This document shows positions 19,158-22,085 of a stretch of DNA of 64,000 bases, one piece after another. The notes beneath the pieces are model-generated. The model worked only from the letters and a program-made list of their open reading frames with translations, was not told the DNA's origin and ran no database searches. Within the stretch, counting starts at the first letter, position 1, and every line of letters starts with the position of its first letter. A program made the translations under genes and the position numbers. The DNA is from an uncultured Candidatus Binatia bacterium (GTDB lineage: Bacteria; Desulfobacterota; Binatia; Bin18): positions 3,700,017-3,764,016 of the forward strand of contig CBDEVZ010000008.1 of the NCBI GenBank assembly GCA_965243735.1, in the 5' to 3' direction.

Positions 19158-19412
19158 ATGAAGACAGTCACCGTATACACCACCCTGTTCTGTCCCTACT
19201 GTACAGCGGCCAAATCTCTGCTGACCAAAAAAGGCGTGCCGTTTGAAGAGATCGACGCGACCGGCAATCCAGACCTGCGCCAAGACATCATGGAACGGTC
19301 CGGGCAGCACACGGTTCCTCAGATTTTTATTGGCGAACAGTCGGTCGGCGGCTTTTCCGAGCTGAACGAGCTGGAGATGTGCGGGGAGCTTGACGAGCTG
19401 TTGGCGGACTGA
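19158..19412 (+). CDS. grxC: Glutaredoxin 3
   Basis: CPYC active site, 'TVPQIFI', 'GGFSEL'. Confidence 0.9.
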   Translation: MKTVTVYTTLFCPYCTAAKSLLTKKGVPFEEIDATGNPDLRQDIMERSGQHTVPQIFIGEQSVGGFSELNELEMCGELDELLAD

Positions 19413-19440
19413 AGACAGGCGTGAAAAAGGAGGAAGCGCG

Positions 19441-19749
19441 ATGGCACTGTATCTCGACGAGGTGTGGCTGAAAGACCCGAGTCCGGAACGGATGAAGGAA
19501 TTCACCAGGCTCATTGGCGCCGCAGCCAAAAGCCCGGCCTCGATTGGCGCGCCCCAAGAGGTCCGCTTTGCCGGTGGCCCGTGGTTCTCGAACGAAGAGC
19601 CCAAGGTCATCTTTCTGGTCGATATTCCCGACCACACCCCGACCTTTCAGATATTCGGCAAGATCGTCTCAAGCGGTCTGGTCGAAAAGCGCCGCCTGAC
19701 CCCGATTGTGGAATGGGGTGAGGTGGAGAAGATGGTCGAACAGCTTTAG
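19441..19749 (+). CDS. Small hypothetical protein, possibly DUF3303/GYD-like dimeric alpha/beta barrel
   Basis: GGAGG upstream of the ATG at 19441; 102 aa ending 'LTPIVEW'. Confidence 0.55.
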   Translation: MALYLDEVWLKDPSPERMKEFTRLIGAAAKSPASIGAPQEVRFAGGPWFSNEEPKVIFLVDIPDHTPTFQIFGKIVSSGLVEKRRLTPIVEWGEVEKMVEQL

Positions 19750-19794
19750 CCGAAGGTCCCGCGCAGGCGTACGGATCAGCCACACTGGGAGAGT

Positions 19795-20082
19795 ATGGGC
19801 ATGCCGACCGATCTGCTCAGCGTGCTGGTCGCGGTGGTGGCTGTTGGGGCAAGCTTAGCTGGAGTGATCCTGACTGGCCTGCACGGGATTCGCAGGGAGA
19901 TGGGCGACCTACGCAGAGAGATGAGCGATCTACGAGGGGAGATGGGTGGCCTGCGAGGAGAGTTGAACGAACTCCGCCGGGATATGGAAACGCGCCTGTC
20001 AACCGTCGAACGCCAGCAGGCGAAGCTCGAAGGATTGCTGGAAGGTCTGCGCGAAGCCATCACCGGGCACAACGCAGCATAA
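19795..20082 (+). CDS. Small membrane-anchored coiled-coil protein with heptad repeats
   Basis: N-terminal hydrophobic helix, then (RREMGDL)(RREMSDL)(RGEMGGL)(RGELNEL) encoded by degenerate 21-nt repeats from 19891. Confidence 0.65.
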   Translation: MGMPTDLLSVLVAVVAVGASLAGVILTGLHGIRREMGDLRREMSDLRGEMGGLRGELNELRRDMETRLSTVERQQAKLEGLLEGLREAITGHNAA

Positions 20083-20200
20083 GCCTCCCCGTGTCCGACC
20101 CCGCATTCCTGCACTGCCCTCTTGGAATGCATTTTCCAGGGGCTCCGCCATCTTGTCCACCAGGAAGTCGGATTACGCCTCTCACTTTGAACGCCGCTCT

Positions 20201-21106
20201 TCAGGCCGAGACCTCACACACCTCACACACCTCACACACCTCAGGATTGTTCTGCTCGGCCAGAACGCGGTCCTCTTCGAACTGATACTGCGGCGTGTCA
20301 TGGCGTTCGACGCGCGTATCGCCGTCGTTTGAGGCCGTCTCTTTCCAGCCGTCCCCGTGTGACCAGCGGAAGGGCAGCCTCTTGATGACGCCCGGCGTCG
20401 TCAGCTCGCTCAAGCCTGCCAGCGCCTGGCGCAGAATGTCTCGCTGCAACTGGGGTTGATGCGGCTCGCCGGTAGTGTGGCCCAGGGGAAAATCGAGAAA
20501 GGCAGCCCTGGGGGGATTCACGGCTTGCATGATGTCAAGCGCGCTGCCCATGCTGAGCGTTGGGATACCGGCAGCCTCGGCGTTGCGGGCGATCAGTCCC
20601 ACGGACTGATGACACACCGGTCAAACCGGGACGAGCAGCGCGGCATCGACGCGTTCGGCCAGCAGGCGCGCGGTCAGCTGCGGGGCCAGCTCGTCGCGCA
20701 CCCGCCGGGAAGAGTAAATCCCGCCCATGAAGGTGTAGGCGTGGTCGGCCAGTTCACCAATCACGCCTTCTTTGACCAGGCCGCGCAGCGTGTCGATGGG
20801 AAACACCACGTTGGCGTCTTTGCGGGCGTCGGTCTGGTCATAGGCGAAGTGGGCTGTTCGGAGATCACTCGTTCTTACGTCGGTGGGAATGGCTCGGAAG
20901 GACAGATCGTCTTTGAAATGGAAGGCGACTTGGCCCTTCATGTACAGCCCGCCGGACGCGATCAAACCCAGACGGCATTCGGACAGCGGCTTGCGCAGCG
21001 GTGTCCACGGCGGGGTGTCGGGGTTGTGGACCCACTTGTACGGCTTATAGCCGAGCTTGGCGTAATTATTGGTGATGCGGGTGATGTAATCGACCGTTTG
21101 CGACAT
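20201..21106 (-). CDS. Selenoprotein of the glycine/sarcosine/betaine/D-proline reductase selenoprotein B (GrdB/PrdB) family, 301 aa with Sec at the UGA at 20621-20623
   Basis: ORF-track pieces 20621-21280 and 20201-20617 are in the same frame and separated only by TGA and one Pro codon, reading '...DAALLVPV-U-PVCHQSVGLIARNAEAAGIPT...'. N-terminal 'PWTPLRKPLSECRLGLIASGG' and 'DANVVFPIDTLRGL' match the GRDB-like domain. Confidence 0.88.
20211..20243. repeat. 9-bp tandem repeat (acctcacac) x3 plus a partial copy, encoding EVC-EVC-EVC-EV
   Basis: Exact copies at 20211, 20220 and 20229, partial copy at 20238. Confidence 0.9.
20592..20610 (-). promoter_or_regulatory. Candidate bacterial SECIS hairpin
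   Basis: mRNA UGA-ccgguguguc-AUCAGUCC-gug-GGACUGAU: a perfect 8-bp stem whose G-starting apical loop begins 18 nt after the UGA. Confidence 0.7.
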
Positions 21107-21236
21107 GGCGTCCTCCGAGCGGCCTAGCTTGACGACTTTTGTGACGGAATGCAACGGCAGGCATGCTTGCACGGCTGTCGAGAACCGGCTAGGCTCCCGG
21201 CGTTCGGCACCCAACGACGACCAGGAGGGCACGCGC

Positions 21237-22085
21237 ATGAAATTTGGACTTTTTGGCATCAATATGGGCATCGCCAGCAACCCAGACGTAGCCGTGCGGG
21301 TTGCCCAGGCGGCCGAAGCGGCCGGTTTTGAGTCGGTCTGGACCGGTGAGCATGTGGTCCTGCCCGACCCCCAGGCTCCGCCCTCCCCGCTTCCGCCCCA
21401 CCACCCGATGCTCGACCCGAGTGTAGCCCTGGCCTTTATTGCCGGTCAGACCCAAACGGTCAGGCTCGGCACCGGCATCATCATTCTGCCCCAGCGCAAC
21501 CCCCTGGTGCTGGCCAAAGAACTGGCCAGTCTGGACGTGGTGTCCGGCGGGCGCCTGATCTTTGGCTTGGGTATCGGCTATCTCAAGCCGGAGTTTGACG
21601 CGCTGGGGATTCCGTTCAGCCACAAAGGGCCGCGGTCGATTGATTATCTGGAGGCCATGAAGGCTGTCTGGACCCAGGACAAGCCTGCCCACCAGGGGGA
21701 TTTTGTCTCGTTTGGTGATATTCAGGCTCACCCCCAACCGGTCCAGAAGCCCCACCCGCCGGTGGTCTTTGGCGGCCATACCCCGCAGGCCTACGAACGC
21801 AGCGTGCAGCACGGCAACGGCTGGTTCGGCTTTGCCCTCGATGTCGAGGCCACGGCAAAATGTCTGGAAGGGCTCAAACACGCCGCCCAGCAGGTCGAGC
21901 GTCCGGCCGAGTTGGGCAGCCTGGAAATCAGCGTCACGCCCAAGGGCCGGCTCGATACCGACACGGTCAAACGCTTTGCCGACCTCGGCGTAGACCGGCT
22001 GATTCCGTTCAAAGCCGCCAAGACCGAGGCGGACTGGATCGACTACGCCAAGCAGACGGGTGATGAGTTGATTGGTAGGAGCTGA
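21237..22085 (+). CDS. LLM-class putative F420-dependent oxidoreductase (Rv2161c-like)
   Basis: 'AEAAGFESVWTGEHVVLP', 'LGTGIIILPQRNPLVLAKELASLDVVSGGRLIFGLGIG'. GGAGG upstream of the ATG at 21237. Confidence 0.9.
   Translation: MKFGLFGINMGIASNPDVAVRVAQAAEAAGFESVWTGEHVVLPDPQAPPSPLPPHHPMLDPSVALAFIAGQTQTVRLGTGIIILPQRNPLVLAKELASLDVVSGGRLIFGLGIGYLKPEFDALGIPFSHKGPRSIDYLEAMKAVWTQDKPAHQGDFVSFGDIQAHPQPVQKPHPPVVFGGHTPQAYERSVQHGNGWFGFALDVEATAKCLEGLKHAAQQVERPAELGSLEISVTPKGRLDTDTVKRFADLGVDRLIPFKAAKTEADWIDYAKQTGDELIGRS

Follow-up and report, generated by a model that had tools for sequence, protein, structure and literature searches.

The 64,000-nucleotide stretch of DNA analyzed here, hereafter the window (contig CBDEVZ010000008.1 of assembly GCA_965243735.1, positions 3,700,017 to 3,764,016), comes from the genome of an uncultured Candidatus Binatia bacterium. 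It holds a selenoprotein gene of the PrdB/GrdB family, which stands between a convergent glutaredoxin gene, grxC, and a divergent gene for an oxidoreductase of the luciferase-like monooxygenase (LLM) type. In our judgment, the product of the selenoprotein gene is a functional, self-contained PrdB-like selenoenzyme that dispenses with pyruvoyl and GrdA partners, and its genomic neighbors are incidental to its function; we put the probability of this reading at about three in four.

Selenocysteine Codon and Decoding Machinery

A GGAGGA Shine-Dalgarno sequence lies 7 nt 5′ of the ATG of the selenoprotein gene, and the reading frame passes through an in-frame TGA before it ends at the stop codon at 20201-20203 (Table 1). 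The UGA at codon 162 is predicted from the sequence to be read as selenocysteine (Sec), because a covarying selenocysteine insertion sequence (SECIS) hairpin follows it and because tRNA-Sec, selA (584 bits), selB, and selD are all found in the genome. Conservation was assessed over 81 loci, namely the window itself and 80 related loci fetched from GTDB species genomes (59–96% identity), and in all 81 the aligned codon is TGA and lies inside a block, LVPVUPVCHQSV, that does not vary. The resulting redox motif, U162-P-V-C165, is of the UxxC form, and its first residue is thus Sec, one of the two residues (Sec or Cys) that mark PrdB at this position. In the minimum free energy fold, the SECIS stem spans 8 bp and begins 11 nt 3′ of the UGA; across 74 distinct sequences folded with RNAalifold, the hairpin is kept, the G-U of the loop is conserved, and a compensatory exchange of U-A for C-G turns AUCAGUCC/GGACUGAU into ACCAGUCC/GGACUGGU. 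As to the arrangement of the decoding genes, selD lies directly downstream of selB (C8:4092433-4095371, minus strand) and has one in-frame TGA of its own, which makes it a Sec-containing SelD, and selA is found away from both, beside tRNA-Sec at C8:1042349.

Homologs that are full length in the databases have Cys or Thr at the Sec column. A translation artifact was ruled out as the source of the Thr, which is encoded by a genuine ACA codon. These Thr variants (VPV-T-PVC) occur in L114:5571-5593 (protein P0003) and in P0004, P0005, and P0014, and they coexist with Cys variants; their TxxC motif recalls peroxiredoxins, and the Thr-variant gene of L114 starts 41 nt after a CoA_binding/Succ_CoA_lig gene.

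Table 1. Features at the selenoprotein locus and the two paralogous genes. Positions are those of the window; the prefix C8 marks positions in the genome.
Feature	Position	Strand	Description
PrdB/GrdB-family selenoprotein gene	20201..21106	-	301 aa + TGA stop; ATG at 21106
Sec codon UGA (Sec162)	20621..20623	-	First residue of UPVC redox motif; context VPV-U-PVC-HQS
SECIS hairpin (predicted)	20589..20613	-	Stem AUCAGUCC/GGACUGAU, GUG loop, plus two outer pairs
C-terminal tail with CxxC(xxC)	20204..20245	-	Sequence PEVCEVCEVCEVSA; 3 x 9-nt tandem repeat at 20216-20242
Divergent spacer, selenoprotein/LLM	21107..21233		127 bp
LLM oxidoreductase, TIGR03619 / Rv2161c type	21234..22085	+	TIGR03619 229.2 bits vs cut-off 166.9; PF00296 167 bits
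grxC, glutaredoxin 3 (CPYC)	19158..19412	+	TIGR02181 103 bits vs cut-off 90
103-aa ORF	19438..19749	+	63-100% identical copies in 16 loci (tblastn)
Lineage-specific 445-bp segment	19746..20190		Holds 95-aa transmembrane/coiled-coil ORF (19795-20082, +)
Paralog 2, PrdB-like Sec gene	C8:515377-516537	+	386 aa; LTPVUPLCPRTV
Paralog 3, PrdB-like Sec gene	~C8:2457066-2458211	-	~381 aa; LTPVUPLCTRTV

Family Placement, Breadth, and Predicted Structure

The selenoprotein matches PF07355 (GRDB) over residues 75-159 with an E value of 1.2e-12 (48.2 bits against a cut-off of 22) and narrowly passes TIGR01918 (various_sel_PB; 67.7 bits against 65.45). Its score for the PrdB equivalog TIGR04483 is 180.8 bits (E 3e-53), below the cut-off of 300, but the alignment joins residues 29-250 to profile positions 13-236 of 238, so that, as far as sequence alignment can tell, the protein is homologous to PrdB along the whole length of the latter. 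The equivalogs of GrdB, GrdF, and GrdH (TIGR01917, NF040794, and NF040795) give 67.4, 61.8, and 58.4 bits against cut-offs of 602, 800, and 775, and these matches are confined to profile positions ~261-425, a full-length protein B having ~430 residues. The protein presumably works like PrdB and is a member of the selenoprotein-B superfamily, yet it is not a PrdB, because its equivalog score lies below the cut-off and the PrdA partner was not found in the genome.

In an alignment of 49 members, 39 positions are invariant and the U-P-V-C pair is kept. They include D66-D67, H86, R95, M127-G-G-x-Y-S132, V159-P, P163-V-C-H-Q167, R174, E177, P199-R200, W248, W254, and R268, and so many fixed positions speak, in our view, for a protein with a defined substrate pocket and against one of generic redox function. 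The AlphaFold2 (AF2) model is of the alpha/beta type, with a predicted local distance difference test (pLDDT) value of 92 and a predicted template modeling score (pTM) of 0.92. A sequence search of the PDB found no homolog (best E 0.28), and Foldseek found nothing in the PDB below an E value of 1e-3 for the model (best E 9e-3; TM-scores 0.2-0.3); since neither search gave a relative, a structural analogy to a PDB entry was dropped.

The gene is an ordinary further member of a known, long-catalogued PrdB-like family, a large branch of the selenoprotein-B superfamily found in bacteria that do not ferment and that have neither a pyruvoyl partner (PrdA/GrdE) nor GrdA. Family members occur in at least 590 GTDB species, and there are 909 matches among the scored candidates of the database clustered at 90% identity; at 50% identity the family comprises 3,242 clusters, and many of their entries are truncated right at the Sec position, on one side of it or the other. 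Reports of stand-alone "PrdB" selenoproteins with the UxxC motif as abundant constituents of oxic ocean metagenomes go back to 2005 (PMC1088965, PMC2398784): the family ranks third in abundance among the selenoprotein families of the Sargasso Sea, with 42 genes (PMC1088965), and 235 "PrdB" genes were counted in the Global Ocean Sampling (GOS) selenoproteome (PMC2398784). Recent reviews give a function for the clostridial enzyme only (PMC9312934, PMC13188914). Our literature search found nothing that joined PrdB-like proteins with selenoproteins under those terms, or Binatia with selenocysteine.

Host Genome and Absence of Stickland Partners

The host genome measures 5.35 Mb and is 98.65% complete. 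The loci nearest to that of the window (96% protein identity) belong to metagenome-assembled genomes (MAGs) of Candidatus Binatia, and near-identical DNA is found, in part, among sponge and marine metagenome runs. The original prediction held the selenoprotein to be a stand-alone enzyme and called for a search of the whole genome for prdA, grdE, and grdA; that search, made with profiles, found neither GrdA (PF04723) nor GrdE/PrdA (PF09338), GrdC/D not having been searched for, and the stand-alone state is genuine. The control genomes named for these profiles themselves proved to lack PF04723 and PF09338, and both searches were rerun on 121 genomes of the phylum, where PF09338 was positive in 4 and PF04723 in 5; because such matches are found in other genomes of the phylum, the searches can be said to work. 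Neither profile matched in the family- and class-level relatives of the window genome within this set. PrdB-like genes are present in 35 of the 121 genomes, each with an in-frame TGA, and only two of these 35 (G028 and G045) also hold GrdA and GrdE/PrdA. With 33 of 35 genomes lacking the Stickland partners, the stand-alone state is the rule rather than a peculiarity of this locus.

The claim that no thioredoxin system lies nearby also held, as neither a WCGPC (thioredoxin, Trx) nor a CATCD (thioredoxin reductase, TrxR) motif occurs in the window. The host is of an aerobic type; it has nuoF/G and an extreme expansion of luciferase-like (PF00296) genes, which number 165 ORFs or ~3.6% of all genes and are often clustered, as in the case of six that lie within C8:514-548 kb. 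A search for F420 biosynthesis genes, likewise called for, recovered a cofG-cofH-cofD-cofE cluster at C8:3278125-3282419, with all four genes above their equivalog cut-offs.

C-Terminal Tail and Proposed Mechanism

The selenoprotein ends in a cysteine-rich tail, which in the window reads C-E-V-C-E-V-C and is encoded by three copies of the repeat unit GAGGTGTGT, giving (E-V-C)n. Close relatives have two copies (L004 and contigs from four RNA runs), so the number of tail cysteines varies among strains with the copy number of the repeat. In raw counts, a CxxC within the last 25 residues is found in 66 of the 81 Sec-form loci and in none of 11 Cys- or Thr-form homologs. The tail has a pLDDT below 50 in the AF2 model and is predicted to be flexible or disordered.

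The protein is most likely a self-contained selenol/thiol reductase of the UxxC type, an assignment made by analogy with PrdB, whose chemistry has been worked out in D-proline reductase (PMC13188914 and references therein). What is observed comprises the motif, the tail, and the missing partners; the steps that would connect them may be envisaged as follows: the selenolate of Sec162 would attack an electrophilic carbon or sulfur of a small substrate, as in PrdB; Cys165 would then resolve the adduct, leaving a selenenylsulfide (Se-S); and the flexible tail with its CxxC, taking electrons from a general thiol system (Trx, or glutaredoxin (Grx) with glutathione), would re-reduce the Se-S center, by which the tail possibly recycles the enzyme.

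Several points weigh against this reading. Substrate, electron source, and tail function are matters of deduction; the correlation of the CxxC tail with Sec ignores phylogeny; and with no solved relative (Foldseek best E 9e-3), no known enzyme is at hand to validate the geometry of the active site. Metatranscriptome contigs from sponge and marine samples, which count in favor of a real selenoprotein gene, span grx, the 103-aa ORF, the selenoprotein gene including its UGA, and the LLM gene, but RNA contigs may include DNA and these stem from a ~95%-identical relative, that is, from another strain. The remaining points concern LLM genes. All three PrdB-like Sec genes of the host have an LLM next to them (gaps of 127, 90, and 154 nt). 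Unrelated LLMs also abut family members in at least four other lineages, downstream in L056, L060, L062, and L070 (gap 88-168 nt) and upstream in L030, L053, and L048, and an LLM is likewise found beside a third paralog in G110.

Neighboring Genes and Alternative Readings

These LLM adjacencies bear on the alternative that best survives, according to which Binatia possess a two-enzyme system in which the PrdB-like protein works with an F420-dependent LLM, either one that prepares or reduces the substrate or one whose F420H2 feeds the Se-S center, with Grx as an auxiliary. It is close to the original prediction, which saw in the selenoprotein, the divergent LLM, and the nearby glutaredoxin a possible redox module. 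The linkage was examined by tblastn of the window neighbors together with an LLM profile search over the 80 related loci, and it is not kept among homologs, the outcome that the original prediction itself named as its refutation. A divergent LLM orthologous to that of the window adjoins the gene in L004-L007 alone, whose selenoproteins are 83-96% identical to that of the window, and it is gone from Binatia relatives at 74-78% selenoprotein identity. In G110 (the genome of L019), the orthologs of both the window gene and paralog 2 stand with no LLM within 6 kb, and in L021 (86%) frameshifts break the LLM ortholog into three fragments, next to a selenoprotein gene, xth, and nuo that are all intact. 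These fragments, at L021:9180-9830 upstream of the selenoprotein gene, correspond to profile positions 2-80, 74-151, and 144-249, and they reflect either a pseudogene or long-read indel errors, as some of the MAGs may be long-read assemblies. In all, the orthologous LLM has been lost or frameshifted beside an intact selenoprotein gene in L021, L009-L022, and G110, and a sample of 29 PrdB-like loci from across the phylum contained no case of an LLM within 1.5 kb.

Grx fares no better as a partner. It lies within 10 kb of the selenoprotein gene in 15 loci, all of the Binatia type, at 1.3-9 kb from the selenoprotein start and always on the opposite strand, and it is always accompanied by the 103-aa ORF and usually by gltD/gltB, whose order is kept; in L007 the stretch of other genes between it and the selenoprotein gene measures 7.7 kb. 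Because this synteny is kept at a variable distance from the selenoprotein, Grx is part of a gltBD-grx-ORF103 block. No universal partner emerged when the five genes on either side were clustered over the 81 loci, which yielded lineage-specific sets only. A Pfam scan of 150 immediate neighbors from 78 loci gave 153 families, led by LLM (8), PntB (7), and acyl-CoA dehydrogenase (7), and the 25 families tabulated include no Grx, Trx, or peroxiredoxin (Prx). As for the lineage-specific sets, a second clade of MAGs labeled Binatia or delta (L056-L062) shows the order acyl-CoA dehydrogenase, family member, LLM, and Entotheonella has an NAD-kinase-like gene beside the family member. In a Deferrimicrobia-like clade (L023, L025, L037, L038, L044, and relatives), pntAB lies upstream in the same direction with a gap of ~70 nt, and an ADP-forming acyl-CoA synthetase or a D-2-hydroxyacid dehydrogenase lies downstream with a gap of 11-71 nt; unlike that in Binatia, this context is operon-like.

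There nevertheless remains a residual LLM signal around the paralogs. Paralogs 2 and 3 (loci L002/L084 and L003) belong to another subfamily, in which a helical C-terminal extension of ~160 residues replaces the CxxC tail. An LLM gene lies 90 nt upstream of paralog 2 and another 154 nt downstream of paralog 3, each on the same strand as its neighbor; the ortholog of paralog 2 in a genome of the same family (L085/L115) has no LLM nearby. By a gene-neighbor count, 6.7% of all non-LLM genes in the genome adjoin an LLM, which gives a naive probability of 0.067^3 = 3e-4 for the three adjacencies and 4.6e-3 for the two paralogs that did not prompt the question. A null model of random 1-kb placement was discarded in favor of this count, as it ignores gene structure. 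Local LLM density (5 and 3 LLMs within 20 genes to either side of the respective paralog) raises the chance expectation for both to ~0.04 by our own estimate. Duplication of a gene pair, in which case the LLMs beside the three PrdB-like genes would form one clade, was rejected, since closer paralogs lie elsewhere in the genome (74% and 62% for the LLM beside paralog 2, 65% for that beside paralog 3).

Taken together, unrelated LLMs adjoin PrdB-like genes in Binatia slightly above chance, and we read this adjacency as co-residence in catabolic regions that are dense in LLMs. In favor of the two-enzyme system one may count the divergent pair with its conserved spacer blocks in the window and L004-L007, the adjacency of all three host genes, the further LLMs beside members in L056, L060, L062, L070, L030, L053, and L048 and beside the third paralog of G110, the place of LLM as the commonest immediate neighbor (8 of 150), and the presence of an F420 pathway. 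Against it stand the cheapness of LLM adjacency in a genome that holds 165 LLM genes, with a local density of 3-5 per 40 genes; the looser kinship among the adjacent LLMs, each of which has closer paralogs elsewhere, and their divergent, upstream, and downstream orientations; the loss of the orthologous LLM; the absence of adjacency across the phylum; and the convergent orientation of Grx, which stays with gltBD. To our knowledge, moreover, no LLM reduces a protein Se-S or S-S bond. We regard the two-enzyme system as unlikely, and much the same holds for the broader idea that in Binatia, and perhaps in other LLM-rich lineages, PrdB-like selenoproteins have been recruited repeatedly beside LLMs for consecutive catabolic steps, which seems doubtful. 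If it were true, an LLM would oxidize or reduce the substrate to yield an activated carbon, which the selenolate would then cleave reductively, and the pair would amount to a partner-swapped, pyruvoyl-free analogue of a Stickland reductase in aerobes. Within our preferred explanation, and with the confidence attached to it as a whole, the divergent LLM and grxC are neighbors of the selenoprotein gene through genome history and not its dedicated partners.

It is quite unlikely that the protein is instead a general thiol/selenol-disulfide oxidoreductase in oxidative-stress defense (a peroxiredoxin, a sulfoxide reductase, or a resolving protein) that performs no C-X cleavage. Its UxxC motif does resemble that of Trx- and Prx-like selenoproteins, TxxC variants occur naturally, and the C-terminal CxxC and the aerobic, sponge-associated host would suit such a role, but the fold differs from that of thioredoxin and lacks a relative in the PDB, Prx, Trx, and Grx are missing from the 25 tabulated neighbor families, and the ~40 residues that are invariant in addition to the redox pair point to a specific substrate pocket. 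A very improbable alternative casts the protein as one subunit of a cryptic multi-subunit reductase whose carbonyl, pyruvoyl, or acceptor partner is encoded elsewhere and is not homologous to PrdA, GrdE, or GrdA. The PrdB-length core is kept, and the characterized members of the family, PrdB and GrdB/F/H, all act in complexes (PMC13188914); this alternative is opposed by the lack of a recurrent neighbor in 78 loci, by the absence of any PF09338 or PF04723 homolog from the genome, and by the C-terminal segment that the protein has of its own, with a CxxC in most Sec forms. That the TGA is a true stop, leaving two fragments or a pseudogene, has next to no likelihood, for although gene callers split the gene and many database entries stop at profile position ~161 or begin at ~164-170, all 81 loci keep the TGA with an invariant frame downstream, the SECIS covaries and the Sec machinery is complete, and the Cys and Thr homologs run straight through.

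Other Features of the Window

The LLM gene begins with an ATG at 21234 that is preceded by AGGAGG, and its product is predicted from sequence to be F420-dependent, as it scores above the TIGR03619 cut-off and its host encodes F420 synthesis. It was correctly described as divergent from the selenoprotein gene, but the shared spacer, which had been given as 130 bp (21107-21236), measures 127 bp (21107-21233). Blocks of this spacer are conserved in the window, L004-L007, and L021, and a scan for the sigma-70 consensus found no match inside it. The glutaredoxin gene, which had been placed about 0.8 kb away, ends 788 bp from the 3′ end of the selenoprotein gene. In Binatia-type loci, the 103-aa ORF always follows grx directly, downstream of gltBD; it matches nothing in Pfam or NCBIfam. 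Between this ORF and the selenoprotein gene lies a 445-bp segment that has no tblastn match in the 80 related loci and is replaced by 40 nt in contigs of the ~95%-identical relative (joint 19745 to 20191), and on these two grounds we consider it a recent insertion. Further out, gltB-gltD lies upstream of grx, and xth with nuoG-nuoF lies past the LLM gene.

Significance and Comparison with Known Systems

In oxic oceans, in soils, and among the symbionts of sponges, few selenoproteins are as common as those of the PrdB-like UxxC family, which carry the label "D-proline reductase" in databases to this day. The copy described here is clean further evidence for a family that functions in the absence of PrdA, GrdA, and GrdE, and it removes the LLM/Grx "module" as a tempting false lead. 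The family is almost exclusively Sec-dependent, and the tail present in most Sec forms suggests an electron relay. Because gene callers split the gene at the UGA, these results have practical value for correct annotation, and the compact protein of 301 residues is a candidate for a first biochemical characterization.

Four known systems invite comparison. The tail resembles the C-terminal tails of TrxR, such as the mammalian GCUG, in being a flexible redox pair that could link an external reductant to a buried center, but the tail of the selenoprotein has only Cys (CxxC), its Sec lies in the core, and it has neither a flavin nor an NADPH domain; the comparison serves as an analogy for the putative electron relay only. 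What the protein has in common with GrdB, GrdF, and GrdH is the catalytic region at the C terminus together with the UxxC motif; relative to GrdB, it lacks the first ~260 residues, its match beginning at profile position 262. Its likeness to PrdB, the 26-kDa D-proline reductase subunit of Clostridium sticklandii and Clostridioides difficile, extends to homology over the whole length, to a UxxC with Sec first, and presumably to a shared chemistry of selenolate attack followed by Se-S formation, whereas the window protein has no PF09338 partner in its genome, carries ~50 extra C-terminal residues with the CxxC tail, and belongs to an aerobic, non-fermenting host. The closest counterpart is the "PrdB" family of the Sargasso Sea and GOS metagenomes (Zhang, Fomenko & Gladyshev 2005; Zhang & Gladyshev 2008), which agrees with the window protein in every feature examined and like it is a stand-alone pfam07355 protein with UxxC from oxic settings, mostly in the Sec form and less often in the Cys form. 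From domain, motif, and ecology, as distinct from a comparison of sequences, we infer that both belong to the same subfamily, the window copy representing it in a sponge-associated member of the Binatia rather than in plankton.

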